This document shows, one piece after another, positions 1 through 64,000 of a DNA stretch of 64,000 bases. Made by a program: the position numbers and the translations under genes. The notes under the pieces are model-generated. The model saw only the letters and a list, made by a program, of their open reading frames with translations, made no database searches and was not told the DNA's origin. Each line of letters begins with the position of its first letter. The first letter of the stretch is position 1. The stretch comes from a bacterium. Its GTDB lineage: Bacteria; Patescibacteriota; Gracilibacteria; BD1-5; UBA2023. The stretch lies in the NCBI GenBank assembly GCA_035437565.1, contig DAOMYL010000003.1, positions 5,596 through 69,595 of the forward strand, written 5' to 3'.

Positions 1-785
1 TTCAGGTCGTCGAGAAATCTCACCCGAAGCGCGGCCATCTCGGTCCGGTAGGCTGTAAGTTGATCCGCTGATCGATCAGTACGCCAAGCGAAGTTCTCCG
101 GATTCTGGTCGTTGGCAATGCGAGAGACGAGATTCTCGATCTGCGCCACCGGATCCGTGGCTCCAGCATAGAGGGTCTGGAGCGAACGGGGTGGAGCGAG
201 ACGGGTATCTCCAAGTCCGTTCATGATCTTTCCCCAGACATGCCCTCCCTTGTCATCGCGCAGGGACGACTGGGGTGTGATCCTCATCTGTACGGACTTC
301 ACGACTATACCGCGCTCCTTGTTGATCCGATCCTGTATCTCGCTCGCCACGGTGATGAGAGGAATTCCGTAACGCGAATTGAAGTCGTTGTATACCTGTT
401 CCGCCTCCGGATTCGTATCGGATCGATCGAGCACAGAACCGGACTCTACCACATACGTAGGCTTGGTCTTGTCGCTAGTCGCCGCGAGCACGACCCCCTC
501 GGTCATGGAGCGAGACGGCATGGCCCCATCGGCGATGGGAGCGGTAGGATCATAGGCCTGCGCGAGGGCCGACCGGGGAGCGAGCAGATCCGGAGTAGCG
601 GCGAGCCCGGCGGCTACCACCGGCACGAAAAAGAGGACTCTCTTTAAGCGATCAGCAACTTGGCAAGTCTTGGCGAAGATACTCTGACGCCCAGCCTCGA
701 GAACAGCATCGGGAGTCTCGCAGACCCCCTGGGCTTCATTTAAGTTTTCATCCCCTATATCGACGATGGATGCGGAAGCGACCAT
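1..785 (-). CDS. hypothetical protein, C-terminal part lies beyond the window edge
   Basis: ATG at 785 on the minus strand and the frame stays open to base 1, so it is absent from the ORF track. Codon usage is GC3-rich like its neighbours. One hydrophobic stretch VLFFVPVVAAGLAA; no motif recognised. Confidence 0.5.
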   Translation of the reverse strand, partial: MVASASIVDIGDENLNEAQGVCETPDAVLEAGRQSIFAKTCQVADRLKRVLFFVPVVAAGLAATPDLLAPRSALAQAYDPTAPIADGAMPSRSMTEGVVLAATSDKTKPTYVVESGSVLDRSDTNPEAEQVYNDFNSRYGIPLITVASEIQDRINKERGIVVKSVQMRITPQSSLRDDKGGHVWGKIMNGLGDTRLAPPRSLQTLYAGATDPVAQIENLVSRIANDQNPENFAWRTDRSADQLTAYRTEMAALRVRFLDDL

Positions 786-1085
786 ACAGGCGAAATTGAA
801 GAAATACCATATTCACACATTCTATCCTTTGGAATGGAAAGTCAATGTATTTTGAGAAAGTTACACTTTTGTCAATGACTCCGATTTTACGGTTCTTACA
901 TAAGGTCGAAACGTTTGTATTCGTCTTTCATGCTAATTCATATTCACCCGTCATTCCTCCGGGGGATCATAGCGATCTGTTCACCGGCAGATAGATGGAG
1001 ACGTTCAGGGAAAGCCGCGAGCAACATCTCGCGTTCGTCCGTCGGGATTCCGCGGTCGGCGGGTGGGAACAATACCGACACGGCC

Positions 1086-2852
1086 CTATTCCAACACCGC
1101 CTTGATCCGGCGGACGCCGGCACTGGAGGCCTCTTCTTTGAGGATGCGGAACGTCCCCATGCCTTCGCTCGACTCCACGTGGGGCCCGCCGCAGAGCTCA
1201 CGCGAGTACACCCGCCCATCGACACCCCGCATGGTATAGACGGTCACGATCTCGGGATACTTCTCCCAGAAGCTCCCCTCCACCCCCTGGGCGCGGGCCT
1301 CGTCCTTGGGCATTTGTTCCACGATCGTGGCGAATCCCGTCCGGATCGCCTCGTTCACGCGGGCTTCGATCGTCTGTTTCTCATGCTCCGTCAGCTTCTC
1401 GTGGTGCGTGAAATCGAATCGCAGGCGCTCCACAGTGATATTGGATCCGGCTTGGTGGACGTGCTCGCCGAGGATCTCGCGCATGGCATCGAGCATGAGA
1501 TGCGTGGCGGAGTGCAGCCGGACGGTGGCATCCGAGGTGTCAGCGAGACCCCCCTTGAATTTCTGCTCGGACCCGGCGCGGGAAAGATCCTGGTGCTTGG
1601 AAAACTCACTGTCGAACTCCGTTTGGTCGAATGAGGGCTTACCGAGTGTCGCGAGCTCATCGCGGATCATTTCGGGTGGCAGTCCGTAGGTCTGGAAGAG
1701 GTCGAAGGCGGTCTTGCCATCCACCTGGTCCGAAACTTTCTCAAGCTCCCGCAGGCCATTCTTGAGGGTCTTGGCGAACCGCTCCTCTTCCTTCGAGAGC
1801 TCATCGAGAATTCGATCTGCGCCCATACGGATCGACTGATACACATCGCGGAACTTCGCGATATAAATCTTCGCGATCTCGGTGATAACCGGCCGCTCGT
1901 ACCCCATCTTGAAAAACTCGCGGATAGCCCGGCGTACCAATCGGCGCAGAATATACCCCTGATCGACATTCTTCGGTACGACTCCATCGGAAATCATGTG
2001 TGTGGCGGCTCGTAGGTGGTCGGCAATGATGCGAGCAGAACGCTCGACATAGGCGGATTGGCCCACGATCTCCCGGATCCGCGCGAGAACATCGGCGAAA
2101 ATATCAGTCTCGTACACGGTCTTTTTATGATTGAGGGTCGCGGTGATCCGCTCGAGTCCCATACCGGTATCCACATTCTGGGCAGGGAGCTTCTCAAGCA
2201 CCCCCTCGGCAGTACGATTATACTCCATGAAGACGTTGTTCCAGATCTCCATCCACTTCTTCGGCTCCTTGCCAACGTTGGATTCGGGGTCGGGCTCCCC
2301 TTCTCCCACCCAATAAAATATCTCAGTGTCGGGTCCGCACGGCCCTGTCGGTCCTGCGGCCCACCAGTTATCTTCCGCGGGCAGGTAGCTGATACGATTC
2401 TCCGGGATTCCGAGCGATTTCCAGATCGCCGCCGACTCCTCGTCGCGGGGCGCATTGGTATCCCCCTCGAAGACCGTGACAGCGAGCCACGAGGGATTGA
2501 GTCCGAGCCACTTCGGGTCCGTAAGAAATTCATAACTCCATTCGATGGATTCCTTCTTGAAGTAGTCTCCGAGCGACCAGTTGCCGAGCATCTCGAAGAA
2601 CGAGAGGTGCGTATTGTCTCCGATGTCATCTATATCCCCGGTTCGCACACACTTCTGCACATCGGCGATACGCTGCCCCATAGGGTGCGGGCGTCCGAGC
2701 AGATACGGCACGAGCGGCTGCATTCCGGCAGTATTGAAGAGAACCGAGGGATCGTTCTCCGGCACGAGCGGTGCAGACTCGATAACGGCATGTTCCTTGG
2801 AACGGAAAAATTCAAGATATTTGGATCGCAGGTCGGATGAAAGAATAGCCAT
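1086..2852 (-). CDS. alaS: alanine--tRNA ligase, short 588-aa form ending right after the editing domain
   Basis: N-terminus MAILSSDLRSKYLEFFRSKEHAVIESAPLVPENDPSVLFNTAGMQP. Editing-domain motifs HSATHLM and CGGPHV. Ends GVRRIKAVLE followed by TAG. Confidence 0.93.
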   Translation of the reverse strand: MAILSSDLRSKYLEFFRSKEHAVIESAPLVPENDPSVLFNTAGMQPLVPYLLGRPHPMGQRIADVQKCVRTGDIDDIGDNTHLSFFEMLGNWSLGDYFKKESIEWSYEFLTDPKWLGLNPSWLAVTVFEGDTNAPRDEESAAIWKSLGIPENRISYLPAEDNWWAAGPTGPCGPDTEIFYWVGEGEPDPESNVGKEPKKWMEIWNNVFMEYNRTAEGVLEKLPAQNVDTGMGLERITATLNHKKTVYETDIFADVLARIREIVGQSAYVERSARIIADHLRAATHMISDGVVPKNVDQGYILRRLVRRAIREFFKMGYERPVITEIAKIYIAKFRDVYQSIRMGADRILDELSKEEERFAKTLKNGLRELEKVSDQVDGKTAFDLFQTYGLPPEMIRDELATLGKPSFDQTEFDSEFSKHQDLSRAGSEQKFKGGLADTSDATVRLHSATHLMLDAMREILGEHVHQAGSNITVERLRFDFTHHEKLTEHEKQTIEARVNEAIRTGFATIVEQMPKDEARAQGVEGSFWEKYPEIVTVYTMRGVDGRVYSRELCGGPHVESSEGMGTFRILKEEASSAGVRRIKAVLE

Positions 2853-2943
2853 AAGTCAGATTAATAGTGTTTGAACGCCATCATAGCGGCTTGGAGCAAA
2901 AAAACAAGAGGTGGTCCACAAAAGGCTAATCTCTCGCCTACCG

Positions 2944-2973
2944 CAAAGAAAGCCCCCTCTTGGCAGAGGGGGC
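2944..2973 (-). terminator. intrinsic terminator downstream of the antiporter gene
   Basis: Perfect 9-bp GC stem GCCCCCTCT / AGAGGGGGC (2952-2960 / 2965-2973) with a 4-nt loop. On the minus strand it is followed by TTTCTTTG. Confidence 0.75.
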
Positions 2974-2986
2974 ATCATGCTTCATG

Positions 2987-5272: not shown

Positions 5273-6898
5273 ATGTGTTATGATGGAGGAAACTGTCTCT
5301 CGCACCCCATGGTCTCTGGCACAAAGCTCATTCTTATATACTCTGCCGGATTCGACAATATCGGCATAGACGATCTTTCCGAGGGGCGGAAAGGAATCTA
5401 TGTGTACACCGGATCGTATGCCGAGATCGAGCGAGCGAGCGAGGGTGATACGGTCATATTTTTCCAGACAGGGCAACGGCGTGCGTACATGTTCGCATTC
5501 CGGGACTCATACCGTATCCAGCAGAACAATAGCCTCTACGTAGAGCTTCCCGGAGAACACCTAGAATTTGATTGTTCCATCGAGGAATTCAAGAATTTCT
5601 ACTTCGTTGACATCGATGCGATCCGCTCGTGGGTACGCTCTCCCCTCTCCTCGGGTCGCAATATTCTCCTACTAGAACCGCGGCACCTACTCGCAGACTT
5701 CTTGAATTTCCCAACGCTTCGCGAAGCCTTTTTGAAAAAGGAAATCTTCATGCGGACCTACGACATCTCGGAATCCTTGCCCGAAAAACCTCTGGAGATC
5801 GAGCGAGTGATTCTCTTGTATGACGCGGAATCCCGCATGTTCGGACGCGAATACTCAGCCTTTGCACCGGAGGGTCGGGATGTGCCGATCACGGGACTCT
5901 CGATGGATGATATTATCCGGGAGAACGAGTCGATGGGTGGATACCTACTCAAAAGCTACCAGCTCGTAAAACGCCTGAAGCGACTCTCGCTCCATTCCTA
6001 CGTCCGCTACTATGATCTCTCACGCGGGAGCCGTGTCATAAAGGAGCTTTGCATTGCAAAAACCCTATCCGCCAAAGATTCCCTGGAAGATCATCCCTCT
6101 CCGGCATCGACAGTATCGATGCAGCCAAATACCCCGGCCGGGGGAGCATGAGATGCTGCATGGATGGAGGCATCCACCGAGAACGAACCCGTTTTGGAGA
6201 CGGGATCCATCGAATCCCTCTCAGATGCGGAAGAAATGATCGAGCGGGCCGCCGTAGACAAAGAACGCCTCTCTGCAGTCCACCGGGAAAAACTCTACGC
6301 CCTCAAGAAGTCCACGGAAGAAGAGATAACGAAACTCCGACACCAAGTGGATTCGCTGCGGATGAACTATACGCTCGAATACTTCCTCAACAAGTCGGCA
6401 GTCGATGAGCTCGGCTATGACCGTGCCGACTACTATGCCGAACTGGAGAATGGACGGTTCGTGGCATCCCGTGGCTCGGTATTCGACATCTTCGGTAACA
6501 GACTCAAAAAACTCAATTATGTCCTCCCTGCACTGCGGATCTCGTATCTCGGACAGTGGAAAGAAACAGTAACCGCGGACAAGAGCCTCTCGGCTCGAGA
6601 GAAGAGCGAAGAAATGCAGAAAATCATCCAGAAATTCGACGATATACTCACCGAAGACCAGAAGCGTGCCCAAAAACGCAGCGTCTTCCGCTGACTCATG
6701 GGATTCCTTTTTTTCGAGACGGTCGCGGTCTTCGTCACGGTTTACATGATGAAAATCGATTATGCCACTATGGCACTACTCATTGGCGCGACACTCGCGC
6801 AAATCACGGTAGTAATCTACCATATCGTGAAGAATCTCTACCCCGTGGACTCGGCGCAGATCGAGCGGATCGGATGGAGTACCAAGCAGGACGCATAA
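5273..6898 (+). CDS. hypothetical protein with a C-terminal TM tail, read through two in-frame TGA
   Basis: Track ORFs 5219..6151, 6164..6694 and 6698..6898 share one frame and are joined only by TGA at 6152-6154 and 6695-6697. TAA stop at 6896-6898. First ATG at 5273, alternative at 5309. Tail is hydrophobic: FLFFETVAVFVTVYMMKIDYATMALLIGATLAQITVVIY. Confidence 0.6.
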
Positions 6899-7398: not shown

Positions 7399-8553
7399 AT
7401 GTCCGATGAAAACAAGACCGTCTATGAACGGAGTCTCGATCTGCATCGCCAGTATGCCGGGAAACTCGAAACCGTGGCAAAATTCCCCATAGAATGACGC
7501 GAGACTCTCTCGCTCGCATACAGTCCCGGCGTGGCCGAGCCGTGCCGAGAAATTGCCCGCGACCCCGAGAAGGCCTACGAATATACCCTCAAATCCAGTA
7601 CGGTCGCCGTCATCAGCGATGGGACCGCCGTCCTCGGACTCGGCGATATTGGCCCGCTCGCAAGCCTTCCTGTTATGGAAGGAAAATGCGTATTGTTCCG
7701 GGAATTTGGTGGAGTCAATGCTTTCCCGATCGTTATCGATACGAAGAATCCCGATGAATTCGTCGAGACCGTGAAGCGAATCGCCGGATCATTTGGCGGA
7801 ATAAACCTCGAAGATATCTCGGCTCCACGATGTTTCGAGATAGAGCGTCGGCTCAAGGCAGAACTCGATATCCCCGTGATGCACGATGATCAGCACGGTA
7901 CGGCAATTGTCGTGTTGGCCGGACTTATCAATGCTCTGAAAATTACCGGTCGTGATCCGCAGACTCTTCGCGTTGTCGTGAACGGACTCGGTGCCGCGGG
8001 AACCGCCGCCATCAATCTCCTACGTTCATACGGCATATCCGATATTGTCGCGTGCGATAGTCGCGGCATTGTCTCGCTCGATCGCGAGGATCTCAATCCA
8101 GAGAAGCGCGGCATCGCGGAATCCACCAACCCACGCAAACTCTCCGGCACACTCACAGACGCGCTTGAGTGAGCGGATTGCTTCATTGGAGTGAGCGTGG
8201 CATGAGCTCTCACGCCGGACATGGTCCGGTCCATGGCGAGCGATCCGATCGTTTTCGCGCTCGCGAACCCCACACCAGAGATTCTCCCGGAAGATGCCAA
8301 GGCTGCGGGGGTACGCATCATGGCAACAGGGCGATCCGACTACCCGAACCAGATCAATAACGTCCTGGCGTTCCCAGGGATATTCCGCGGTGCTCTCTCC
8401 GCCCGCAAGCGCGAAATCACCGATGAGATGAAACTCGCGGCAGCCCAGGCAATCGCTTCTCTCGTAGAACACCCGACTCCCGATGAGATCATCCCAGATC
8501 CATTCGACCGCCGCGTTCCGGAGATTGTGGCCGAGAGAATCCGAAGTCTCTAA
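7399..8553 (+). CDS. NAD(P)-dependent malic enzyme, short form of about 384 aa
   Basis: [37 protein letters not shown] and ANPTPEI are present. Three in-frame TGA (7495, 8170, 8203) fall in PIE[G]RETLSLAY and ALE[G][10 protein letters not shown][G]ALT. Confidence 0.92.
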
Positions 8554-9785: not shown

Positions 9786-11054
9786 TTAGGATTCTATACG
9801 ATCGATCTGGATTCCGAGCGACCGGAGTTTCCCGAGAATATCCTCGTAACCCCGCTCGATATACTCGACATTCGTAATGCGCGTCTCTCCTTCGGCGATA
9901 AGACCCGCGAGGATCATGGATGCACCGGAGCGGAGATCCCAGCTCGTGACCGTAGTGCCGCGCAGTTTCGTTGGACCGAAGATGAGTGCCTCGTGAGGAT
10001 TGAGGATGGCAGAATGCCCTTTCATGGCTTCGAGCTCCATGAGCATATTGAATCGCCCTTCGAACAAGATCTCATGCACGCGCGATATTCCCTCGGCTTG
10101 CGTAAGCATCACGGTAAAAGGCGATTGGATATCCGTCGGGAATCCGGGAAAGACATTGGTCTGCAGGGAGATCGCCCGGAGATTCGAGCGGGAGTTATGC
10201 ACGCGTATGGTATCGTTGGACCGTAACTCGTAGCATACTCCCGCTTCGGATGCTTTGATGAGGAAACTTCCGAGATCCCCGATCCGGGCATGCTCGATGT
10301 CGATAAATTCTTCCGCACAAAGTGCGCCAAGAAGAATAAAAAATCCCGACTCGAGGTAATCGTGTATGACGGTATACTCCACATGCTCGGGGAGCTCCGA
10401 TATGCCGGAGACTTCGAACGAATGATCATAGGAAGTCTCAATCCGAGCACCGCAAGCGCGCAGAAACCCAACCACATCCATTACGTGCGGCTCGATCGCG
10501 GCAAGACGGATTTTGGTAGTGCCAGGCCGGAAAGCACTCGCGGCGAGCAGATTCTCCGTCGCAGTGACTGAGAAAAACGTGGAAAGCTCGACATCGTGTC
10601 GGAATCAGTCACCCGAGAAAGAAAGCAGTCCGTCCGACTCGGAGAAGCCGTATCCGAGCATTCTGAGTCCATTGACATGCTCATCGATCGGACGCTTTCC
10701 GAGATTGCATCCTCCTGGATACGGGAGATCCACTCGCCCGAATCGATGCAAAAGAGCGGGGATGAGCAGGATACTCGCCCGAATCTTCTTCACGAGTCCA
10801 GGGTCATCACTCTCCGGCCTCATGTCAGAAGTATCGAGCTCGACCGTATTTCCCTCAAAACGAACGGTCACACCGTAGCTCTCGAAAATGCGAAGCAACA
10901 TCATGACATCCCCTATGTGGGGAATATTATGAAGGGTGGACCGCCGAGCAAATAGGGCAGACGCAAGAACTGGAAGGGCTGCATTTTTCGCGCCGCTCAT
11001 ACGCACGGTTCCACGGGCGGTTTGTCCTCATTCGATTCGGAGCATGGGAGTCAT
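9786..11054 (-). CDS. murA: UDP-N-acetylglucosamine 1-carboxyvinyltransferase
   Basis: MTPMLRIE[G]GQTARGTVRMSGAKNAALP N-terminus, PGGCNLGKRPID, TENLLAA and the C-terminal GETRITNVEYIERGYE. In-frame TGA at 11028-11030 and 10602-10604. Confidence 0.95.
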
Positions 11055-11077: not shown

Positions 11078-12679
11078 CTAGCGATCGTTTTTTTCGACCA
11101 TGGCACGGACAAATCCGATGAAGAGCGGATGGGGTCTCGTGGGACGGGACTTGAATTCTGGATGGAATTGGGCTCCGATCATGAATGGATGATCAGCGAT
11201 CTCGACAATCTCCACGAGACTTCCGTCCGGGCTCGTTCCAGAGATTCGGAATCCGTTGGCTTCCATGCGATCACGGTAAGCGTTATTGAATTCATAGCGG
11301 TGACGATGTCGTTCGTCAATGGATGTTTCACCATAGAGACGGTGCGCGAGTGATCCTTCGGTGATAGTACAGGGATAGGTACCGAGACGCATGGTTCCAC
11401 CCTTTTTTGTGATATCTTTCTGGGAGTCCATGATATGGACCACCGGGTCCGATGTCATCTCATCAAATTCCTGACTGTTCGCACTTGGCAGACCCAAGAC
11501 ATCGCGAGCGAATTCGATCGCCATAATCTGTGACCCGAGGCAAACACCGAGGTACGGGATTTTGTTCTTTCGAGCGTACCGAGCCGCAAGGATCTTTCCT
11601 CCTGTGCCACGAATACCGAACCCCCCTGGAATACAGATACCATCGAGGTCTCGGAGAATCGACTCAGCATCCCTGGACTCGAGTGATTCAGCATCGATGA
11701 ATCGAATATCAACTTTTTTTCGCAGGCCGAATCCGGCAGTACGGAGACCCTCATTGAGAGAGTAGTACGCGTCCTCAAGATCATTATACTTACCGATCAT
11801 CCCGATCACGAGGGACTCCGAAGAAGCCTCGATATTCTCGGAGAGTCGAGTCCATGCGGCAAAATCGAAGCCCCGATCCGAAAGCCCGAGACGCCGAAGG
11901 ACGGACATCCTGACACCCTGTCGCTCGAACTCTACCGGTACCTGGTAGATGCTCGGAAGATTTGGTGAAGCGATGACGCTCGACCGGTCGAGCGAACAAA
12001 AGTACGCAGTCTTGGCAAGGATATCCTCAGGGATCGCTTCATCAGATCGCAGGACAACAAAATCCGGCGTAATTCCGTAGGACATGAGTGTCCGGACGGC
12101 GTGCTGTGTCGGCTTGGTCTTGAGCTCCTTGGACGCACCGAGATACGGCAAGAGCGTAACGTGGACGAAGAGAACATTATCTCGTCCGAGTTCTTGGCCC
12201 ATTTGCCGAGCCGTCTCGATGAAGTATTCATTCTCCATATCTCCTACGGTTCCACCGATCTCGATGATCGACACATCTGCACCGCTCGTCTCGAACCCCT
12301 CGCGAACCTTGGACTTCACGAGATCCGTGAGGTGCGGCACGATCTGCACGGTCTTGCCGAGGTAGTCGCCGTGTCGTTCGCGAGCAATAACCTCCTCGAA
12401 GAGTCGCCCTGAAGTAAACGAAGAGAGCTTGTTGAGTTCGCTGTCGATGAATCGCTCATAGTGACCGATGTCAAGATCTGTCTCGGCTCCGTCTTGAGTG
12501 ACGAAGACTTCTCCGTGCTGGAATGGCGACATCGTGCCAGGGTCGACATTGAGGTATCAGTCGAACTTCTGAAAAAACACTCGGTATCCGCTCGCCTTGA
12601 GCAATGCTCCAATACTCGAGGCTACGATTCCTTTCCCGATACCAGACAACACTCATCCCGTCACGAATATGCACTTCAT
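11078..12679 (-). CDS. pyrG: CTP synthase
   Basis: MKCIFVTG[G]VLSGIGKGI ... KFD[G][20 protein letters not shown]. Glutaminase half has GICLGSQ-type [15 protein letters not shown] and [11 protein letters not shown] at 12653-12655 and a second one nine codons upstream of the track start at 12532. Confidence 0.96.
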
Positions 12680-12869: not shown

Positions 12870-12944
12870 GAGGCTATCGTCTAGTGGTCAGGACAACGGG
12901 TTTTCATCCCGTAAACCGGAGTTCAATTCTCCGTAGCCTTACCA
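12870..12944 (+). tRNA. tRNA-Glu (anticodon UUC) with encoded CCA
   Basis: Hand-folded cloverleaf. Acceptor GAGGCTA/TAGCCTT; D arm GTCT-AGTGGTCA-GGAC; anticodon arm ACGGG-TTTTCAT-CCCGT; 4-nt variable loop; T arm CGGAG-TTCAATT-CTCCG; discriminator A then CCA. Confidence 0.9.
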
Positions 12945-19197: not shown

Positions 19198-20625
19198 CTA
19201 GATGCCGAGTTTATCGCGCAGGACGTTTATTTCGTAGAAGAGATTCTGGTCTTTCTTGAGAATCTGTTCAAGTTTCTTGCAAGAATAGAGGACCGAGGAA
19301 TGATTGCGACCGGAGAAAATATTTCCGATACGGTCATACGTATAATTGAGTCGATTCTTGAGCAGATACATGGCAACCTGTCTCGGAATCATGTTCTCTT
19401 TGCGGCGATCCTCCCCCACCAAACTCCCCACCTCGATACCGAAATGCGCACTTACTGCATCGAGAAGTTCTTGGTATCCGGCAATCTTGGTTCTGGATTT
19501 TTTTGGTCCCGAGAAGTCATCGGTAATCGCGAGCTTCTTGAATTTCTTCGCGACGTGCTCGATCGTCGGAGGCGTATTATGTAGCTCATATTCGGCCACG
19601 AGCTGATTGAGAATTCCTTCGAGCTCGCGCACGTTCTCCCCTGTATTATAGGCAATGAACTCGGCGACCTGCTGAGGAATGATGAACTCCCGCGCACGAG
19701 CCTTCTCCTGGAGGATCGCGAGCCGCGTCTCGAAATCCGGTGCGCCAATATCGACAATAATTCCCCACTCGAAGCGGTTTCGGAGACGCGGTTCAAGCTC
19801 CGAGAGCTCCTTGGGCGGACGATCGCCGGAGAGGACGATCTGCTTATTCCCTTCGTAAAGGATATTGAAAATATTATAGAGCTCTTCCTGCGTCTGCTTT
19901 TTGCCAGCGAGGAACTGTACGTCATCGATAATGAGTACATCGATCGAGCGGTATTTCTCGCGCATCTGGTCGACCTTCCGAGCCTTCACACTCGTAATGT
20001 AGTCCGTGAGAAATCGATCGGCGGTCGTATAGATCACACGCTTATCGCGAAATCTTGCCCGGATACCGTTTCCGATCGCCTGGAGAAGATGGGTCTTTCC
20101 GAGCCCAACATCCCCATAGATGAAGAGTGGATTGTAGCTCGATCCCGGCTTCCGGCAGACAGCATCGGCGGCGGCGTATGCGAGCTGGTTCGATGGACCA
20201 ATGATGAAGTTATCGAGACGATATTTGTCGTTGATAACGCGGGAGACGATCCCATCGACCTGCTCGTGTCCGGGAATCTCGGTCTTCTTAGTGCGCTTGG
20301 AGGTAAATTCCTTATAGAGTGTTTGGCAATCGACAACCTGCGTATTGGTCGTATTGTCGATCGCCGTATCGACAACGAAATCCACCGATTCGATGGATGG
20401 AACAAATTTTTTGGTCGCTTGCTTGATTTCGTCGTAAAACTTGTGAGAAAGGTTGTCGCGCATAAAACTCGATACGACCCCGAAAACAATACGGTCGGAC
20501 GTACGGTCAACAACGGACAGCTTCTTGAAATAGGTCAGGAAATCCTGCTTGCGCACGGTGCTTACGAGCTCCGAGACAATCTCTTTCAGGATGATTTTTG
20601 CTTCGAGGGAATCGGTTTGCTGCAT
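19198..20625 (-). CDS. dnaA: chromosomal replication initiator protein DnaA
   Basis: 475 aa. AAA+ Walker A GDVGLGKTHLLQAIGN, box VII and sensor regions, and the C-terminal DNA-binding helix (MIPRQVAMYLLKN, IGNIFSGRNHSSVLYSC). Confidence 0.96.
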   Translation of the reverse strand: MQQTDSLEAKIILKEIVSELVSTVRKQDFLTYFKKLSVVDRTSDRIVFGVVSSFMRDNLSHKFYDEIKQATKKFVPSIESVDFVVDTAIDNTTNTQVVDCQTLYKEFTSKRTKKTEIPGHEQVDGIVSRVINDKYRLDNFIIGPSNQLAYAAADAVCRKPGSSYNPLFIYGDVGLGKTHLLQAIGNGIRARFRDKRVIYTTADRFLTDYITSVKARKVDQMREKYRSIDVLIIDDVQFLAGKKQTQEELYNIFNILYEGNKQIVLSGDRPPKELSELEPRLRNRFEWGIIVDIGAPDFETRLAILQEKARAREFIIPQQVAEFIAYNTGENVRELEGILNQLVAEYELHNTPPTIEHVAKKFKKLAITDDFSGPKKSRTKIAGYQELLDAVSAHFGIEVGSLVGEDRRKENMIPRQVAMYLLKNRLNYTYDRIGNIFSGRNHSSVLYSCKKLEQILKKDQNLFYEINVLRDKLGI

Positions 20626-21521: not shown

Positions 21522-21635
21522 AGACATAACTTCGACCTACCAAACGCGTCCGGGAAATGGATGCGTTTTTTTGATAATACGAGCCAAACTGGTACAATGG
21601 GAGCGAATATGCCCTGAATCGTAAACGATCGTACC

Positions 21636-34962: not shown

Positions 34963-34974
34963 AGTCGATCGGGG

Positions 34975-36177: not shown

Positions 36178-36233
36178 AGCGAAAGGTAAGGGGAAACGCC
36201 CGCATAGTACGCATTTTCAAGAGAAACACAACC

Positions 36234-43644: not shown

Positions 43645-45003
43645 CTATTCCTTCGAATGTGCTCGTATCCGCTCGGCAACCTCAAAGAAGCGCGCATTGA
43701 GTGTCTCCCGGTTTTGAGCCTCGACATTGAGTCGGAGCAATGGCTCGTTTGATGATGGACGGATATTGCACCACCAGTCCTGGTACCGCAGAGTCACGCC
43801 ATCGCCATCGATACGTTGAGCATCCGGGTAGTACGCTGCGACAGCCGCAATGGTCGACCAAATATTGCGGACTTCGAAGTTGGTCTCAGGCGTACTCTCT
43901 CGCGTATGAAATTCATCCCAGATTTCGGACGCCCTCTTGCCGCTATCCGAGAGGTATCGCAAGAAAACAAGAAACGCGATCAGGCCACTATCAATGCACT
44001 GATTCTCGCGGAAATAGTAATGCCCCGAATGCTCTCATGCAAAAACGATTCTCGGATCCGAGCGCATTCGTTCTTTGATATAGACGTGTCCCACATATTC
44101 CTGCACGAACTCGCCTCCGAGCAAACGAACAAGGTTGCGAGCATCGTCTCCGAGAAGAGTATTACCACATATCGCGGCACCTGGATGCCTCTCGAGCATT
44201 ATTTTCGCGATAATTGCCGTCATCTGCGTTCCGGAGAATATCCGCCCCTTCTCATCTACCACGACCGCACGATCGGCATCGCCATCAAATGCGATACCGA
44301 GGTCTGCCCCGATATTCCGCACGCGATCGATGAGCATGTGAAGTGTCTCTGGATCGAGTGGGTTCGCCGGATGATTCGGAAATGTTCCATCCGGCTCGAA
44401 GTAGAGAGGATCGATATTGAGTCCGATAGATTGCGCAAGTGCTTCGAGCGGCGGGCCTGCGACACCATTTCCTGCATCAGCGATGATACGCAGCGGGACA
44501 AGCGTGGTCTCTCATGCGGCAAACGCCGAAACATGACCGATCCAGTCTTCGAGGATCGAACGGAACTCGATTGTGCCGGATTGCCCACCCAATAGTTCTG
44601 GGAGATCCGACATAATACTGCGAATCGCCGGACTGTGTGTCTTGAAATTGAACGGAACCCCCCCTTTCTCACAGACCTTCACACCATTGTATCGTCCGGG
44701 ATTATGACTCGCGGTGACCATGACAGCGAGATCAATATCATCAAATCGGACACTCGACCAGTGGCACATATCCGTGGAAACAAGTCCGAGGGAAACCACA
44801 TTGACACCCTCGGCAGCGAATCCGCGCATGAGTGCGTCCGAGAGAGATGGAGACGATACACGCGCATCCCATCATACGGATACCCGCGATGGAGAGCGGT
44901 ATCGTGCCAACGCCCGCCCAAGCGCGAAGAACCATGCTTCATCGATTGTCTCGGGATAGACGGCGCGTATATCATACGATGATCCGATGAAAGAAGTATC
45001 CAT
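43645..45003 (-). CDS. alpha-D-phosphohexomutase (phosphomannomutase / phosphoglucomutase / GlmM-type)
   Basis: VSV[G]WDAR, TASHNPGRYNGVK (active-site Ser), GIAFDGDADR, G[G]EHSGH and IRPSSNEPLLRLNVEA. TGA at 44872, 44512 and 44035. Confidence 0.9.
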
Positions 45004-48589: not shown

Positions 48590-48833
48590 AAAGCGAGAAA
48601 GTTAGAAGACGTTTCCTCGTGAAGAGGATGGGAGAGTATATCCCTCTTGTCGTTAAGCGTAAAGGGGAAATTATTCTTTTTCTGGGAGTTCTGCCTGGAC
48701 TTCCTGGTACAACATGTCAAAAGCAAGAAAAGAACAATGCGGCAAGCACGCAGGCGAGTGGGGGGCGAAGAAAATGGTATTGGCCGAATCGATATTCCGG
48801 ATACAATCGGGAAAAGACTTCTTCGCCCATCCA

Positions 48834-49850
48834 ATGGTCATCCGGTCGAGCCAACCATCTACCGCCCGCATCGTCTCACCAAAAGAAGATACGAAGCATC
48901 CGTCCGACAACCCGGCACTTCGTCCGCGATCTTTCGATGAGTACGTGGGACAATCCGATGTAGTGGGGAGACTCCGGGTCGCGACCGAATCAGCCCGTAT
49001 CCGACAAACACCCCTGGAGCACGTACTCTTCTATGGTCCTCCGTGACTCGGCAAAACGACGCTCGCGAATATCCTCTCGCACGAGATGGGAGCACACCTG
49101 CGACAAACCTCATGACCCGCATGTCAGAAGCCGAGCGATCTCATATCCATCCTCACGGGACTCAAGGATGGCGACATGCTCTTCATTGACGAGATGCACC
49201 GTCTCCCTCCTGCACTCGAAGAGATCTGCTACTCCGCAATGGAAGATCGGACGATCGACATCATGATCGGATCCGGTACAGGAGCCACGAGTGTGACAAT
49301 GAATATCGCTCCTTTTACCCTCATCGGTGCCACGACGAGACTGTCGCTTCTTTCTGGACCCCTGCGTGACCGATTCGGAAATATCCTCAAGCTCGACCTC
49401 TACGATGAGGAAGAACTCGCCCGTATCGCCCGCCGGTCGATGAGCCTCCTCGGATATGACGGCCTGCCGAACGAGGCAGTATCGCTCATTGCGCGCCGCG
49501 GACGCGGGACTCCGCGTATCGTGAATCGCTATGCGAAGATCCTGCGCGACTACGCGACCGTGGGGCGTGATATTGCCTCTCCCGAGGCTATCAGCTCGGT
49601 CTTCATGGAGATCGGCGTGGATAATGAATGACTCGACCAAATCGACCGGACACTCTTACAGGCACTCTCGGTCACATTCGCTGGGCGGGCGGTATGAGTA
49701 GGCACGCTCGCGGCGTATCTCGGAGAGGAAGCCGAAACTCTCGAGGACGTGATCGAGCCATACCTCCTGAAGAAGGGCTACATGGAAAGAACGCCCGCAT
49801 GACGACGAATCACGCGGGCAGGAGAATCGATTATCAGAACGCTCGGCTAA
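48834..49850 (+). CDS. ruvB: Holliday junction branch-migration ATPase RuvB
   Basis: [12 protein letters not shown], Walker A GPP[G]LGKTT, TS[G][35 protein letters not shown][G]VGTLA and RTPA[G]RRIT. TGA at 49044, 49110, 49629, 49695 and 49800. Start uncertain (48714, 48774 or 48834). Confidence 0.93.
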
Positions 49851-51603: not shown

Positions 51604-53592
<1,989 letters not shown>

Positions 53593-54383: not shown

Positions 54384-57300
54384 ATGAGCGACGCTCTTTT
54401 ATCCACGCGAGAAGACCCCTGCCAGACCGTACCGAATGCGAAGCCGGCACATACGTCCCCCATTCTTCCGCCGCTCGAATCAAATGAAGCCTTTCTCGCC
54501 GTGATTCATGCTCTCCGCGATGCCGAGGTTTCGAGTCCAGATCGCACCCGGAGTATCGATGCAATTATCGCAAAAACGACGGCAGGCACGGGAAGTCCTA
54601 GGATCAACAAGAATGGTGTGATGGCGATATACACGATTGCTTCGAGTCTCGCCGAAACATTCCAGAACCCTACATTCCAGCAAGATCCGAAAGAGCCTAT
54701 CCACTCTTTCGTTTCGAATCTCCCGGACATGTTCGAACCAGGGTCATGGATGAGATCCGTGATCGCTTCGGATCTTCCGCGAAACCGACGTGAAACACTC
54801 ATATACGGCACGTTTTTTATCTGGCTCGATCGGACGTATTTCCGGCACAAGGGAGCCCGAGTACCCGAACCAATACTCCGGTACCTCCAAGAAGATCATG
54901 TCCAGACACAGGGCGTCCACTTCTTGAAGGCGAGTCTCGATAGAATGGGGAGCAACAATGACAATCACCGGAACCGACACCTCGAACTCGGATTCTGTCT
55001 CCTCTCAGGAGACGACTCGCTCGAGATCGCGGAGCTCGTAGAGGAGGCGAAGCGACCGGAAAACCAGTGACTCGACAAACAAAGCTGCGTGGCACTCGAA
55101 AAAATAGAGACGGGTTTCCGGACTGCGGCGAACGTACTCAAGAATGAATTTCAAGAGCAAATCAACAGTACAAAAGGGGCGGCCACGATTTCGGACATCT
55201 CGAAGTTCCTCATCAAGACCGACCGAATTGTCGACCGCTTCGGTGTGCATATCAACCTGATGAACTGGTCGATGCAACCATATGCCGAGGAGCCGGCACA
55301 CCGTCCGTACATTCTCCTGCTTCGCAACCACATAGACCGAATAGAAAAGAGCGTCCGCGATGTACTGGATATCGTCTCGGATATCGAGAAGCTCTACCCT
55401 GCAAATTCCCCTTGGGCATCGAGCCAGAATGGAATGCTCGTTTCGGTCTTGCGACTCCGAATGCTCTGGCTCCAATACAATCTCTGCAAGATCCAGATCA
55501 ACACCGCCCCCTCCCTATTCGAGCAGAGAATACATAAAGGCGGAGGAAAAACGCAAGAGAACCACCAAATCTACGCAGCCGAGACAGAGCGTTTCACAAA
55601 GCGAATAGAACTCGGGGAACAAAATCTCTCCCAAATTATCGCGCTCTGCGATGATCTCGCCAGTCGGGAGCCGCGGTACGCACAATGTGCGGCGGCTGCC
55701 CCCTGGGACAATTCCGGATGACCGTCACAGATGCGGACCGGAGATCTCATCGATGCTATCATTGGGCACGCTACCACATCCCTCGATGCCGACAAGAATC
55801 GCGCATTGGAGCAAAGAGAAAAACGCAGAACTTACGGTATTCTCTGCAATTTCTCCTATCTCCCACTCATACTCGCACGCTACGAATCGAGACTTGAGTC
55901 ATCAGTGCGGCGCGACATCGAGAGTGGAATCTCAAATATCCTGCTCATGCAGGAAGAGAGAGATCCGAATACTCTCAACGATGTGGATCTGGTGACAGCG
56001 GAAAACGCACAAACCCGACGCCTCCAGTTCATTCGGAATTTCGCACAGGTACCACCGGAAAATCCGGACATTTTTCGCGAAACCGTAGAGAACGCATACC
56101 AACTCTTCCGGACTCTTCCTGCCGAAGAGCGCACCGACGACCTACTCTCGATGCTCGCTGATACGCTCATGCGACGTCTTCAAGAAGTCTGATCGCGGCG
56201 GACTTCGCTCCAGGCATCCCTCCTACTCTTCGAGGTGACGCAAGCACTCCGTCTATCATACTTTCGCAGTCCCCGAGGATCAAAAACACTTTCTGGTACG
56301 CTCTCTCGGATTTCACAGTTTGCCAAAACAAACTCAAGTGCTGGATCTTCATCGGATTCTCTCGGACGAATCTGTCTCGAGCTTGCCCGAGTCTCCGCCA
56401 TCATCGGAGCAGATCTCTGTACCAACCGGAAATACTCCGTTGTTCCGAAGGAATTAAAACAAGAATGCTTCGAGAGTCTCCGAAGAGCTCTCTACCTTCA
56501 TCCGAATTTTTCAGCGGTCCTCTCATCAATGGAGGCTGATGAGCTCCAGCGCATCAGCGTAATGCTCGACATCCAGAGTCCCACCGATCTGCTCACGAAG
56601 ACTCGTCCGGCAAAAGACGTACTGGTGAAAGGAATCAGGAGCATCGTTATGACGATGGGGTCGAGAGAGCGTTCGAGAGCACTCACGAACGCTCTCTCCA
56701 AGGAAATCGCCACGACCGTGAATGAATTGCTCGAAACGGAAGATGCCCAACACGCCAAGGCGACATGAACGGTAATCAACCATCTAAGAACCCGTCTCAC
56801 CAAGAGCGTCTTTGCGATGATCGGCGAAAAAATATTCCACGGCCGCTGAGTCGTCCATATGGCGATTCTCAAACCTGAATCATTCAAGACGTCCGAGGTG
56901 CCCGACTCATCAGCGATACTCTCGGCCGCGGTAAAGAACGAAGAAATTTCCCGAGATCAGCGCATCACGCCACTCGTGATTCATCCGTGAGTCGTGATAT
57001 TCGTGGCTCACGAGCCGACCGTCTCATCCCAGATCCGCTCCATTATTCAGTCCGAAGGACTGGAAGACTCGATGGAACGTCTCTGCGATGCCATACTCGA
57101 TCTCCAAGACGGCCTCGATGGAGCCAAGCTCGCGAAAAAATGTATCGAGGCTCTCCTGCCACGGAAGAGGAGTGGCATGATGAATGCCTGTGCCGGATGG
57201 GTCATCGATCCGGACACGGGCATTGCATCAGCTCTTGCGGGTGATTCAATCAATGAAAACAAGACTCCTGAGAATAGAGCTTCTTCTGTCGCCCGGGCCG

Positions 57301-58541
57301 CGAGTGCCTGCTATCTCGCTGTCACCGATGCTGGCGAAGCACAGGAATTCAAAAAACCTGGAAGTGAGTCTACCCATTATTTTCAGTCGCTCTACTTCCA
57401 GACATCAACACGCACTCCCCCATCTTGCCTGCGTCCCGGTGCGACAATTTTCCTCCAGGTAGTGCCGCAGTGAGAATACTTGTCACACCTCGTGAGAAAT
57501 GGAATCATTTCGGGGAGCGCGCTCGCAACGATACCGGCACACGAAGTCGCCGCCCTCGAGAATACCGTCCCACTGATCGGAACAATTTCCCATGTGAGCC
57601 AATGATGACAGGTGGACGTTATGATTACCGGACCACTCACCTTTGCCCGGCACTATCTCACAACCATGCGGGCAGCACGATCGGCGGGAGTCGTCTACAT
57701 CGATGAGCGGAGTATCCAAGGGTCCAATTCGGAACACGGCATGCTCACGGCACAATCACAAATAACGACCGGGAACCGCGGACAAACGGTCGCCCCGAGA
57801 GTCCTCATGAGCGGCCCTGGGTGAGAAAATATGAGAGGCGTCTGTTCGTTTCTTGGTCCGGATTCATTGCGAGTCGTCTTCGAGCTTTCGAGAGATGCGA
57901 TCTCAAGACTCGGCCCGTTTCTTGCGACACAGGGCGATCTGACAGTGGCGGTAAACATACTCTCCGATCTTCGAGCGAACCTCGTCTCTGCTCTCAGAAA
58001 CCTCTGTCGCAAAGACGAAACAGCAAAAGGGGAAATGGTCACCAAATACCTGGACCAAACCCTGCAAAGGATCCTCGACAATCCACAGGCGTCACCTGGA
58101 AAAAACTCCAGAATTTGAACTGAAACAGCACGAAAAATCCATTGGGGTGAGCTGATAAAAAGGACAATCCGCGCCGCAATCCCTCCGGAAAAAGACTACA
58201 CGCCCGATGCCGTAGATGAGATCATTCGAACCGTCGGTGACGATCTTATCGAGCACACGTCATCACACGATTCCATCTTCCACGAACTCCTCGCGCTCCC
58301 TGGGCTCGATGCCGCCAAAAATCCGCTCTTTCGCATAACAATAGACTCGAAAACACTTGAGCTTTCCACGGCAACGATCGACCATCTCAAAACACCGCTT
58401 ATCACGATGAACCCTCACTCTGGACTCGTGGAGCTGACATTCCGATATACCAGATCGGCGGAATCCAATAAGTTTGTCCGATCGTTGCGAGAGAAGCTTC
58501 TCTGAAACGATGCATCGGGAATGCGATCGACGCTTCTCTAG
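54384..58541 (+). CDS. giant hypothetical protein (1385 aa), no signal peptide, twelve in-frame TGA
   Basis: Track ORFs 54384..55070, 55089..55721, 55731..56192, 56235..56768, 56994..57473, 57612..57824 and 57831..58118 are all in frame 0. All gaps I translated contain only TGA. TAG at 58539-58541. No motif recognised; predominantly helical-looking sequence. Confidence 0.75.
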
Positions 58542-60036: not shown

Positions 60037-62514
60037 TTATTCGGTCATGTCCGCACTCTGAGCCGGAAGTCCATCGAGATGCTCATCCGGAGAGCCGTAG
60101 TAAATGAACGCAGCCCATGATATATCCTGCGGATGACGCGAACGGAGGTACTTTTTCGACTCCACGAGCGATGATCCAATCGTGTCTCCGGCAAGTAGGT
60201 GTGAGTAGAAGCGTCCGGCAAAATCGCTCGCAGACACATCATTGACTGGCCACATGGTGGAAATGACACCCTTGGCCCCTCCGACTACGAATCCCGTGGC
60301 GATCCCCACGGATCCGAGCGGATCGGCATCGAAAATGCGATCCGAAGAAGGCACTTCGACGACAGTGTCGGAGAGCGCGCCAGATGAACAGGCATTGAGG
60401 AAAATCAGTGGATTCCCTCCGAGTGACCGCTTGATTTCAGTCACAGAGAGCAGCTGTCCGGAGGCGAGCACGAGACCGCTCTCATCGGGCGTATCACGGT
60501 CGTGCACGGCATGTCCAGCATAATGAATCACATCCCATGCCTGCCCGAGTAGCGGTACGAGATTCGGAATACTGGCATCCTCTCATCGTACTACCGTCAT
60601 ATCCGCAACACTCCGCATGGCAGCAATAATTGTCTCGACCTCTCGCTCCGTCCCCGGAAGATCTCCCGTTGGATTCACGATAAAGAGTATTCGAGGTTTT
60701 CTGTGTGTCTTGACAGGATTGACACGAATCTCGCCAGATACCAGCAACCCTCTTGCTATGGGATAGGAAAGCGCGAGAAATTTCGTACCATCGTGCATGA
60801 TCTCCCACGGAATCTCCTGCTCATCGGTACGGATCACGAGATCTCCGGATCGCGATGAGAGTGCCTCGCGTATGCGCTCGGAGAGGAAGAGTCGGTAGAT
60901 GGTATTGCCTGAGGTTTTGAGATCCGGAACGGACAACGGAAGGCTCGCAAGCTCATCAAGTGCCGTGCCGCGCACGATGGCAAGACGATTCACGGACGAG
61001 ACGAAAGCCCGAATTCCTTCGATCACCGCCTTACGATTCTCCTCAAGGACCTTTATAGAGCGTTCATAGAGGTCTCGGTATTCGATCCGGTATTCATTCC
61101 CGGTGCGAAATATTCGCAAGACATCGGTATTTTTTCGTTGGTCGTCCGAGGATTCCGTACGAGCGTCACGTACGGCAGATGCCCTCATGCGAGGTGACCG
61201 GCGAATCATCCAGATGATTCCTGTCATACCGAGAATCGCGACAAAGATAGCGACAAGAAGAGCTGGATCGAGAGATTCGAACGAGGAAGACGCTCTCGTA
61301 TCGGCGAGTACCTGTGGTTTGGATGACCCGATATCAGCGGTAGCGAGCAAACCGGATCACTCGATCTCGTTGCCACGCTCCTGCAAATCAACGGACTCAA
61401 GAGATTCCGAAGACTGAGGGGCTTGCGAGGATTCGTCCGTTTTTCCCGAGGCGGTGAGATTCTTTGTGTTTCTCTTCGTGTTTGGCGTCTGTGAGACAAC
61501 CCCCGTCCAACTCGGCGTATCCGGTGATTTGGTCACTTTGACACCGAGCGTATATTCATTGATTCGTCTCCTCGTATCATCTACGAACACTCGCAATGAC
61601 GAGGCCCTATCAGACACATATCAAACCGCCTCGAGATCATCGAGCGTGTATGAGATATTATTAATGCGCTCGAGCCATGCAACTCGCTCGGAGTCAGAGA
61701 GATCTTCGCGTGCGAGTGCCTTCGCGAGGAGGGATTTCTCGGATGCGAGATCGACTCCCTCGATGAATTCGATACCTGAACGCTTCCGATCGAGCTTCGA
61801 TTCGAGCGATGACAGGAGGAATTTCTGGGAAGGGGTCATACGTTCATCGTACTCCCGACGTAGCACAGCAATCCGCTCGATCGCTTTCGAAAGGTCTGCT
61901 TGCGAGTTGAGGTACGAGACCACGACTTCTGGCTTATTGCGCAGGAGATCCGGAGCGAGCGATTGGAGCGCGGAGTCCGAGAGGAGAGCGGATTTCTCCG
62001 GAAAGAGTCGTTTTCCGAAGCCGGACAGATCAACAATTTCCTCGCTGCATACGACCCGGCTGTTATCCATTACGATACAGAGGCGAGCGAAACGAGGCCA
62101 GGAATCCGCTCGCGCGAGGACGGAAGCATCCCCCTCGGACCCGAGAGAAAACGCCTGTCGATCCGCATCGTACGACACCGATCAGGGGGCATTTCTCTCA
62201 GAATTATCATAGTACCACAGGAGATTTTCACCCTGATAGGTCATTCAGACATCGTACTCATCGGCATAGATGAGCTTGAACCATGCGGCATCGCGCACTA
62301 ACCGAGAGTCTTGCGCGCTCCAGGAGAAGCGCACAATTCGATCGGACGGCATATCCACGGAAAAATGGATCCGATCCGAGACCACAGACGGATCTGACTG
62401 GACGACTGAGCGGGACTCCTCGGCATATACGAAGCCCGACCACCCGCAGAATAACAATGCGGCGAGACAGCAAAGGACCACATGCCGGGACGAGAAGGAA
62501 TCGAAGAAAGACAT
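60037..62514 (-). CDS. transmembrane CHAT-domain (caspase-like) protease, about 825 aa
   Basis: Track ORFs 62245..62622, 61621..62178, 61357..61617, 60583..61350 and 60037..60531 are all in one frame, joined by TGA at 62245, 62182, 61621, 61357 and 60583. Signal/anchor MSFFDSFSSRHVVLCCLAALLFCGWSGFVYA. Internal TM LLVAIFVAILGMTGIIWMI. CHAT core ILFIVNPTGDLPGTEREV ... VIHYAGHA (His) ... LIFLNACSSG (Cys) ... VISTMWPVNDVSASDFAGRFY. Confidence 0.75.
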
Positions 62515-62781
62515 ATGTCCCATGAAAGAGCAGTTCTCTCTCATCAGAATACCGCACTTTTTGTGCCATGACAACTTCTTGGGCGCAAGAATCGGCAACC
62601 CTCCCGAAAACCCGCCAGCCACGAATAGACGCGAAATCCAGATATTATGGCTTCATTCTGCCATGTTGCCACTTCGTACCGAACAATTTATTTATACGGG
62701 GTAAATTTTGGGATAACTTTTTTTCTGGCTTCGCAGAGGTGATACCGAGTGTTTCCTCAATACTGGCTCTTACTATTTTCT

Positions 62782-62811
62782 TTGACAAAACAAAATAGTG
62801 TTGCTTAATAT
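62782..62811 (+). promoter_or_regulatory. sigma70-like promoter with no downstream CDS
   Basis: TTGACA (62782-62787), 17-18 nt spacer, TTAATAT (62805-62811). Confidence 0.55.
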
Positions 62812-62814
62812 CAA

Positions 62815-62967
62815 CGTGCCACCGGGGAGATCAAATATCCCACCGGCACGGCCTCGGGCCAAGCCATATTCTTACCCTCATTCTTATGCGAGTGATGCAG
62901 TGGCACTAAAAATGAAAAAGCAAAATCTCTGACAAAAGGTTTTCCCGGGAGCAATCCCGGCTTTTTT
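62815..62967 (+). ncRNA. candidate small RNA of about 150 nt, class unknown
   Basis: Bounded by the promoter at 62782 and the terminator at 62944. No plausible ORF. Internal pairing potential: GTGCCAC with GTGGCAC about 80 nt apart, and GGCC-TCG-GGCC. Confidence 0.4.
62944..62967 (+). terminator. intrinsic terminator of the candidate sRNA
   Basis: CCGGGA-GCAA-TCCCGG followed by C then TTTTTT on the plus strand. The minus-strand reading has no adjacent T run. Confidence 0.65.
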
Positions 62968-62987
62968 GTGACCGAATCGCCCGGACC

Positions 62988-63356
62988 CTAGGCAACGGAG
63001 AACAGGAGTCGTTCAAAGAGATCCACGAGAGATTTTTCATCCCGGTATTCGTGGATCCGATCCGTCACAATTCGCAGGGATCCAGAGATCTTCGTGCCCT
63101 CGGCATGGATGCAGACGATCGGCTTGTCGAGCATATGAGCCCACCCGATCTCGATCCCGAGTCCCGTGGAGGGAAACGAAACCTCCGCCACCATGAGATC
63201 GCATGACCGAATGACTCCGAGTGAGTCTTTCGGAATATCACACAACTCGTAGGGAAAAATGATCTCATGCCGGGAATCGGCAAATCGTTCACGTACGGGC
63301 CGATACAGTGTCTCGCGGTAATCGAGATCCTTGGAGTGGCAGACGTATACGCGCAT
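62988..63356 (-). CDS. nucleoside 2-deoxyribosyltransferase-like protein (122 aa)
   Basis: MRVYVCHS ... DLMVAEVSFPSTGLGIEIGWAHMLDKPIVCI fits the Rossmann-like NDT/YtoQ pattern. Assignment rests on pattern memory only. Confidence 0.45.
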   Translation of the reverse strand: MRVYVCHSKDLDYRETLYRPVRERFADSRHEIIFPYELCDIPKDSLGVIRSCDLMVAEVSFPSTGLGIEIGWAHMLDKPIVCIHAEGTKISGSLRIVTDRIHEYRDEKSLVDLFERLLFSVA

Positions 63357-64000
63357 TATTCAGCTGACGAGGATGTATCGACATAGACAACATCGAGACC
63401 GAATCTCTCACGCAGATGCTCGCCCACGGCGATCGGCCCAAACGTCTCGGTCTCGTAGTGGCCACCGAGCACGAATGCCTGTCCCGCCTCGCGCGCCGAA
63501 ATAATCTGATAATGCACAGCCTCTCCCGTGATATAAGCATCGTATCATTCATCATGAGCCTCGAGTATCTGACTCCCGGCTCCTCCGGTCACCACGGATA
63601 CCGAACCGATCGTTTCCTTGCCTTCGAAATTGTAGAGGTCGGGGACGATGCCAATCTCCATGATCGCCTCGACGAACGCATCGGTCGTAACGGGACGGGA
63701 AAACTTGATTCCGAAACCGATCACGCTCCCGTAGTACTGGCCGAACGGTTCGATATTAGCGGACTCATCCTCTCGTCCGAGGGCTATAAGGAGGGCTCGC
63801 ATGAGTGCGATATTGTTGCCGGACTCGGGATGCCTATCGAGCGGGAGATGACAAGCGTAGAGCGCGATCCCTGCATCGAGGAAGCTGCGGACGCGGCGAT
63901 AGTGAAGCCCCGTGAGTACGGACTCATGTCCCCAAAACATGCCGTGATGGACGAACAGGAAATCTACCCCGAGATCTCGCGCCATGTCGGCAGTATACGA
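63356..64000 (-). CDS. NIF3-family dinuclear-metal protein, N-terminus beyond the window edge
   Basis: FLFVHHGMFWG, CHLPLDRHPESGNN and GGHYETETFG. TGA at 63545. Its TAA overlaps the next ATG (TAATG). Confidence 0.85.

Follow-up and report, generated by a model that had tools for sequence, protein, structure and literature searches.

The question raised by this 64,000-nucleotide stretch of bacterial DNA (contig DAOMYL010000003.1, positions 5,596 to 69,595; the whole stretch is hereafter called the window) is whether the codon TGA, which interrupts many of its conserved genes, terminates translation or specifies an amino acid. From the sequence evidence described here, we conclude that the window is almost certainly chromosomal DNA of an uncultured BD1-5 bacterium using translation table 25, in which UGA specifies glycine and translation stops only at UAA and UAG. 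Three independent lines of evidence support the assignment of TGA as a glycine sense codon: the residues found at TGA sites in solved structures of homologues from standard-code organisms, the codons found at TGA sites in a close syntenic relative, and the position of one TGA within a poly-glycine run.

We built greedy, non-overlapping sets of open reading frames (ORFs) for the window, whose G+C content is 53.1%, removing each stop codon in turn. Under table 11 this procedure produced 76 ORFs with a mean length of 239 aa that covered 0.86 of the window. Dropping TGA alone from the stops produced 47 ORFs with a mean length of 438 aa and a coverage of 0.97, while dropping TAG or TAA gave mean lengths of 289 aa and 270 aa, respectively. 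A comparison of table 25 with table 11 had been suggested in a first-pass annotation of this DNA, which was made from the sequence alone and proposed that TGA is read as glycine; the near doubling of mean ORF length on removal of TGA bears this proposal out. No TGA-specific jump in ORF length was seen at most of the standard-code loci that we used for comparison. The exceptions were one ambiguous locus and one locus with 59% G+C, where long spurious ORFs are expected.

Gene models were based on codon usage with TGA as a sense codon and comprised 43 ORFs. The model placed ppa on the wrong strand (corrected to 29749-30336, − strand) and missed a gene at 5309-6898 (+ strand); both errors were mended using public gene calls and the relative described below. 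Searches against Pfam and solved structures identified alaS, a Na+/H+ exchanger, glutaredoxin, malic enzyme, PrsW, murA, pyrG, efp, glmS, ruvB, a phosphohexomutase, an FNR-like reductase and a cNMP-binding protein, and precomputed annotation on the source contigs added dnaA, gyrB, rplS, ppa, RlmL, a GT4 glycosyltransferase, RseP, FtsE, RecJ and a CHAT-domain protein. The modelled ORFs contain 101 in-frame TGAs, and TGA accounts for 4.6-7% of the Gly-box codons. Of the 42 closed ORFs, 22 terminate at TAG and the other 20 at TAA, as had been claimed in the first-pass annotation. Its further statement that the recoding changes almost every gene was somewhat overstated: 35 of the 43 modelled ORFs hold a TGA, yet the TGAs of alaS, the Na+/H+ exchanger gene and gyrB are confined to spurious 5′ extensions, leaving about three quarters of the genes affected. 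The genes without TGA are dnaA (19198-20625, − strand; 475 aa), gyrB (51604-53520, − strand; 638 aa), efp, rplS and alaS.

Under the standard code, these TGAs would be real stops, and the interrupted genes would be pseudogenes, split genes or products of sequencing or assembly errors. Public pipelines did call the genes as fragments under table 11, as this explanation would have it. We nevertheless assign it a negligible probability, as the frames are broken by TGA only and never by TAA or TAG, and continue unchanged across 101 TGAs. The standard code would also leave the essential single-copy genes pyrG, murA, glmS and ruvB all broken, and four independent assemblies (ENA, JGI, NCBI and Logan) hold the identical sequence of these genes. 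The interchange of TGA with GGN codons in a relative that itself has in-frame TGAs, presented below, argues against it as well.

To assign an amino acid to TGA, we aligned eight proteins, with each TGA replaced by X, to solved structures from standard-code organisms. The best-matching structure contains glycine at 13 of the 24 TGA sites and tryptophan or cysteine at none; at a background glycine frequency of 8%, the binomial probability of at least 13 glycines in 24 sites is ~1e-9. When BLOSUM62 scores were summed over these 24 sites, glycine scored +63 and the next best residue +6, while tryptophan and cysteine scored -58 and -68, respectively.

The agreement with glycine is most complete in ruvB (48714-49850, + strand), where all five in-frame TGAs correspond to glycine in solved RuvB structures, including the one in the Walker A motif (GPP[TGA]LGKT, 49044-49046). 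The two TGAs of pyrG (CTP synthase; 11078-12679, − strand; 533 aa) align with G and P: the TGA at 12653-12655 occupies the invariant glycine of FVTGGV, and that at 12557-12559 lies within DxYLNVD, at a position that is proline in most bacteria and glycine throughout the clade to which the window belongs. The four TGAs of glmS (41194-43026, − strand; 610 aa), one of which is at 42928-42930, align with G, E, S and G in E. coli GlmS, and the C-terminal SVTVE of the two proteins is identical. The phosphohexomutase gene (43645-45003, − strand) has three TGAs in its conserved part, aligned with G, D and G, and the one at 44035-44037 falls in the GGE.S.H loop; the first-pass annotation had quoted its context as G[TGA]EHSGH, but the actual reading is VFA[TGA]EHSGH. 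For the three TGAs of the FNR-like reductase gene (NAD_binding_1; 20850-21521, + strand), the best-match residues are K, G and G, with K/G at the first site across structures.

The remaining three proteins are less uniform. The murA TGAs (gene at 9786-11054, − strand, 422 aa; TGAs at 11028-11030 and 10605-10607) align with K and K in the best match, and the second-best match has G at the first site. Those of the malic enzyme gene (7399-8553, + strand, 384 aa; TGAs at 7495-7497, 8170-8172 and 8203-8205) align with S, D and G, and a second match has G at the second site. The cNMP-binding protein (43147-43587, + strand) has two TGAs, with Y and N in the best match; the second site is glycine in three of the four repeats of the structural match, and the other lies in a variable column. 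The TGA that matches this conserved glycine is in the sequence SV[TGA]EIFGE at about 43384-43386 (+ strand), where the first-pass annotation had reported V[TGA]EIFGE. The seven TGAs that it had listed by coordinate (two in the malic enzyme gene and one each in pyrG, murA, ruvB, glmS and the phosphohexomutase gene) are all in frame on the strand it gave.

The proline site in the pyrG DxYLNVD motif was considered as a counter-example and dropped. Glycine is present at this position in 80 of the 120 best pyrG homologues, which are the clade's own and named Candidatus Gracilibacteria or Absconditabacteria, and the codon itself is TGA in two low-GC relatives.

The second line of evidence comes from a close relative. 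A search with pyrG led to a JGI contig of 394 kb (Ga0633753_000042, sample 3300073658; local G+C 57.7%), which encodes a protein 86% identical to the pyrG product and is syntenic with the window over ~5-31 kb. We compared codons across 17 orthologue pairs, using true frames only. The 35 window TGAs in these genes pair with glycine codons (GGN) at 23 sites, with alanine and serine at 3 each, and with threonine, proline, aspartate, lysine, tryptophan and TGA once each. As controls, window GGN codons (n=460) pair with glycine at 78% of sites, followed by alanine, aspartate and serine; TGG codons (n=51) pair with tryptophan at 82%; and TGY codons (n=64) pair with cysteine at 78%. As the partner pattern of TGA mirrors that of the GGN control and differs from those of TGG and TGY, we conclude that TGA acts as a synonymous glycine codon. 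The reciprocal comparison gave the same picture, with the 11 TGAs of the relative pairing with window GGN at 10 sites and with TGA at one.

The most frequent partner of TGA is GGA, from which it is one substitution away. In this GC-rich genome UGA is a minor glycine codon, interchanging mainly with GGA. Both murA TGAs pair with GGA in the relative, in columns that are variable in distant homologues; the three malic enzyme TGAs pair with GGG, GGA and GGA, and those of the FNR-like reductase gene with GAT, GGC and GGA. CGA and CGG remain arginine: these codons are abundant in the window (12-16 per 1000 codons), align to Arg/Lys as CGT and CGC do, and pair with arginine at 66% and lysine at 11% of 217 sites in the relative.

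These comparisons also bear on the proposal that TGA encodes tryptophan (translation table 4), as it does in Mycoplasmatales and several insect endosymbionts. This proposal shares the observation that TGA is clearly a sense codon, and it can draw on the one window TGA that pairs with TGG in the relative and on database entries for relatives that show W at such positions. Because these W residues fall on invariant glycines, they appear to be translations made by table-4 pipelines. We regard a tryptophan meaning as extremely unlikely, given that tryptophan is found at 0 of the 24 structure-aligned sites and at 1 of the 35 relative-aligned sites, compared to 23 for glycine. True TGG codons, by comparison, pair with tryptophan at the 82% of sites given above and at 96% in the pyrG outgroup, and further summed BLOSUM62 figures are +133 for glycine and -93 for tryptophan.

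A different proposal is that TGA marks selenocysteine or occasional context-dependent readthrough rather than a genome-wide reassignment. UGA is the selenocysteine codon in many bacteria, and the label 'SeC' is what ARAGORN gives to every tRNA whose anticodon is UCA. We give this proposal essentially no credence, as the ~100 sites in three quarters of the genes are far above any selenoproteome, the sites include the Walker A motif and structural glycines, and none aligns to cysteine or selenocysteine (no search for SECIS elements was made).

The third line of evidence supporting glycine as the meaning of TGA does not depend on homologues and comes from a surface-type protein of 1027 aa (30347-33430, − strand). 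Its TGA at 31514-31516 (− strand) lies within a run of 13 glycine codons (GGA TGA GGC GGA GGT GGT GGG GGT GGC GGA GGT GGT GGA GGA).

Reading through TGA also exposes long frames, which the first-pass annotation had called giant. The frames are there, but at 1466, 1385 and 1027 aa they are better described as large. The largest (21561-25961, + strand; 1466 aa) contains 11 TGAs and matches no Pfam family, and the probability of a 1466-codon frame without TAA or TAG is ~7e-19 at the base composition of the window. A word-indexed search found no homologue of this ORF. An exhaustive search of 1.84 billion representatives, with a 408-aa TGA-free segment of the ORF as the query, recovered two clusters only, one containing its own fragment and the other a relative at 36% identity. 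The latter sits at the syntenic position of the relative's contig, and an alignment of the two ORFs spans 1461 positions with 46% identity and runs through the TGAs, with 8 of the 10 aligned TGAs pairing with GGN. From this sequence conservation, the 1466-aa ORF is a real gene. The second large ORF (54384-58541, + strand; 1385 aa) contains 12 TGAs, two of them in tandem at about 57603-57608, and also matches no Pfam family; its support is intrinsic only, with a chance of ~7e-18 of lacking TAA and TAG.

Several observations weigh against the glycine assignment. First, not every TGA sits on an invariant glycine: in the structural alignments, the best match has another residue at 11 of the 24 sites, which are mostly variable columns. 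Second, 11 of the 35 sites aligned with the relative are not glycine, and most of these are variable columns or contain alanine, serine or threonine. Third, the gene at 5309-6898 (about 529 aa, no assigned function, 76% identical to the relative) has a TGA at 6149-6151 that pairs with CCC and another at 6692-6694 that pairs with TGG. The latter, which is the sole TGA-to-Trp site in the comparison with the relative, lies in a conserved context (KRSVFRxLMGFLF compared to KGTVFRWLMGFLF), and it could reflect either a recent change of TGG to TGA or some ambiguity between UGA and UGG. Fourth, we did not find a tRNA with anticodon UCA in the window, in the flanking 5.8 kb and 8.4 kb of its contig or in the neighbouring contig at NCBI.

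The TGG site lends some support to a dual meaning of TGA, in which the codon is mostly glycine but also serves as the stop of certain genes, or is in part misread, either by tRNA-Trp or through wobble. The authors of the Codetta paper noted that U34 wobble could in principle blur the distinction between UGA and UGG (PMC8629427). However, a single TGG site fits ordinary substitution, and no gene in the window requires a TGA stop. The pyrG, murA, glmS and malic enzyme proteins end, at TAA or TAG, where their homologues do, and TGAs are not enriched near the ends of ORFs, with only 6 of 101 in the last tenth. We therefore consider a dual meaning very unlikely and retain glycine as the meaning of UGA.

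With respect to the mechanism, established knowledge of code 25 predicts that a tRNA-Gly whose anticodon is UCA would be dedicated to UGA and that release factor 2 (RF2) would be lost. Both features are established for the clade (Codetta paper, PMC8629427; gTranslate preprint), and a tRNA(UCA) with glycine identity would carry G1:C72, C2:G71, G3:C70 and U73. The sole tRNA of the window is tRNA-Glu(UUC) (12870-12944, + strand), and searches with ARAGORN and Rfam found no tRNA(UCA) at the loci of two high-GC relatives. Only tRNAs for Glu, Asn, Met and Leu were found across the window, its flanks, the adjoining contig and these loci. In a genome that has one tRNA(UCA) gene, a stretch of only ~80 kb is expected by chance to lack it.

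Scanning metagenome contigs for a structural pattern gave at least 120 tRNA(UCA) matches, and none of those listed was from samples 3300006417 or 3300073658. Most of the matches listed represent one 79-nt tRNA(UCA) of low-GC code-25 bacteria, which is near-invariant in sequence (GCGGGGGTAACATAAAAGAGTGAGTGTACTAAGGCTTCAACCC...) although the G+C content of its loci ranges from 18 to 44%. The next gene is often tRNA-Gly(GCC) or tRNA-Arg(GCG), and the loci share no conserved protein neighbour. One contig of 62% G+C (Ga0209488_10042658, 1-74, − strand) carries a 74-nt tRNA-Gly-like body (G1-C2-G3, U73, CCA end) with anticodon UCA at the contig end, adjoining a SpoU methylase gene without an in-frame TGA. 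For this and one other high-GC tRNA(UCA) match, no link to UBA2023 was established.

The lineage that carries this code is BD1-5. A comparison of gyrB with species-representative genomes gave ~60% identity to Peribacteria and others as the best among the matches listed, but the standard-code neighbourhood suggested by these matches was overturned by the ORF statistics and the pyrG search. Among named organisms, the best pyrG matches are to Candidatus Gracilibacteria, at 63-66% identity, in agreement with the Gracilibacteria code proposed in the first-pass annotation; the match named Absconditabacteria has 59% identity. Look-ups with dnaA, alaS and gyrB put the window on a 78,254-bp contig of a bioreactor-sludge metagenome (SRR1506951), in JGI sample 3300006417 and in NCBI assembly GCA_002335145.1. 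The source data for Figure 4 of Shulgina and Eddy (eLife 2021, PMC8629427) list GCA_002335145.1, 'Patescibacteria group bacterium UBA2023', as GTDB s__UBA2023 sp002335145 in o__BD1-5, with Codetta assignments of UGA=Gly, CGA=Arg and CGG=Arg, a completeness of 0.67 and a GC of 0.53. The listed codon usage of this genome (CGA 128, CGG 137 and UGG 75 per 10,000) agrees with the CGA, CGG and UGG counts of the window. The window genome is that of Patescibacteria bacterium UBA2023 (GCA_002335145.1); the meaning of UGA as glycine was already known for this exact genome, and the first-pass annotation was correct in stating that the recoding is not new.

Table 25 has been described in BD1-5/Gracilibacteria (Rinke et al. 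2013; Hanke et al. 2014, PMC4032931; Shulgina and Eddy 2021, PMC8629427), and the window shares with these genomes UGA as glycine, UAA and UAG as stops, and membership of the order o__BD1-5. The gTranslate preprint reports that the GTDB class containing Absconditabacterales and BD1-5 (JAEDAM01) uses table 25, and that some genomes labelled Gracilibacteria at NCBI use table 11. UBA2023 differs from the other code-25 genomes of the Codetta table in its G+C content (0.53 compared to 0.21-0.43), and UGA is rare as a glycine codon in the window, with 2 in pyrG compared to 18-33 in low-GC relatives. The sister lineage Absconditabacteria (SR1) also reads UGA as glycine but adds a predicted reading of CGA and CGG as tryptophan (Campbell et al. 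2013; Shulgina and Eddy 2021), which does not apply to the window. Table 4 (Mycoplasmatales, Hodgkinia, Zinderia, Nasuia, Stammera and some Eggerthellaceae) resembles the code of the window in turning UGA from stop to sense, with RF2 loss expected, but differs from it in the amino acid that is specified. Peribacteria and Peregrinibacteria, standard-code neighbours in the broad Patescibacteria group, are similar to the window in G+C content (0.5-0.58); unlike the window, they show no gain in ORF length on TGA removal, and Codetta infers no sense UGA in them.

UBA2023 is the most GC-rich code-25 genome in the Codetta table. The two high-GC relatives, represented by the 394-kb contig Ga0633753_000042 and the 383-kb contig CAYZVC010000002.1, have local G+C contents of 0.574-0.578, above the published maximum of 0.53, and in-frame TGAs are still present in them. 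The number of TGAs in pyrG declines with G+C content (33 at 0.23, 18 at 0.39, 2 at 0.53 and 0 at 0.58), as predicted if GC pressure acts on a synonymous family of TGA and GGN codons. It is conceivable, though in our judgement rather unlikely, that UBA2023 and its relatives (local G+C 0.53-0.58) form a GC-rich code-25 sublineage from which UGA is being purged by GC pressure. The decoding machinery of such GC-rich members might differ from the conserved 79-nt tRNA(UCA) of low-GC members, and the one TGA that pairs with TGG might be a sign that UGA and UGG are less strictly distinguished.

Beyond the recoded genes, we noted several features of the window and its surroundings. The 1027-aa protein, which combines its poly-Gly linker with a weak peptidoglycan-binding domain, is encoded in a cluster (30347-36231 and 39283-41109, − strand) whose products are predicted to be secreted or located at the cell surface; other members of the cluster are a WxL-interacting-protein-like protein and a protein with SLH and PKD domains. 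The CHAT-domain (caspase-like) protein (60037-62664, − strand; about 830-875 aa) has six in-frame TGAs; its N-terminal region is long, and a membrane segment is predicted. Approximately 3-4.4 kb beyond position 1 of the window, the source contig carries a tRNA-Asn(GUU) gene followed by the gene of a zinc-ribbon serine recombinase; in the JGI copy, an HTH gene comes next. Such an arrangement is typical of elements that have integrated at a tRNA gene.

The recoding itself is textbook, but it has direct consequences for annotation. A table-11 annotation of this contig is wrong, and table 25 is needed. The public gene calls (ENA, JGI, NCBI and Logan) treat TGA as a stop and split genes exactly at TGAs, leaving table-11 fragments of 131 and 231 aa for murA, 105, 100 and 105 aa for the phosphohexomutase and 151 aa for ruvB; the malic enzyme gene, glmS and the large ORFs are also fragmented. 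Databases therefore contain truncated proteins from table-11 calls of these contigs.

For the biology of this lineage, a purge of UGA under GC pressure, if true, would provide an example from nature of a reassigned codon on its way back to extinction. A genome of 53% GC, with relatives at ~58% locally, keeps a stop codon capture that is usually explained by AT pressure. With UGA kept at low frequency, the change in the code has remained fixed even though the bias in base composition that once favoured it is now reversed.

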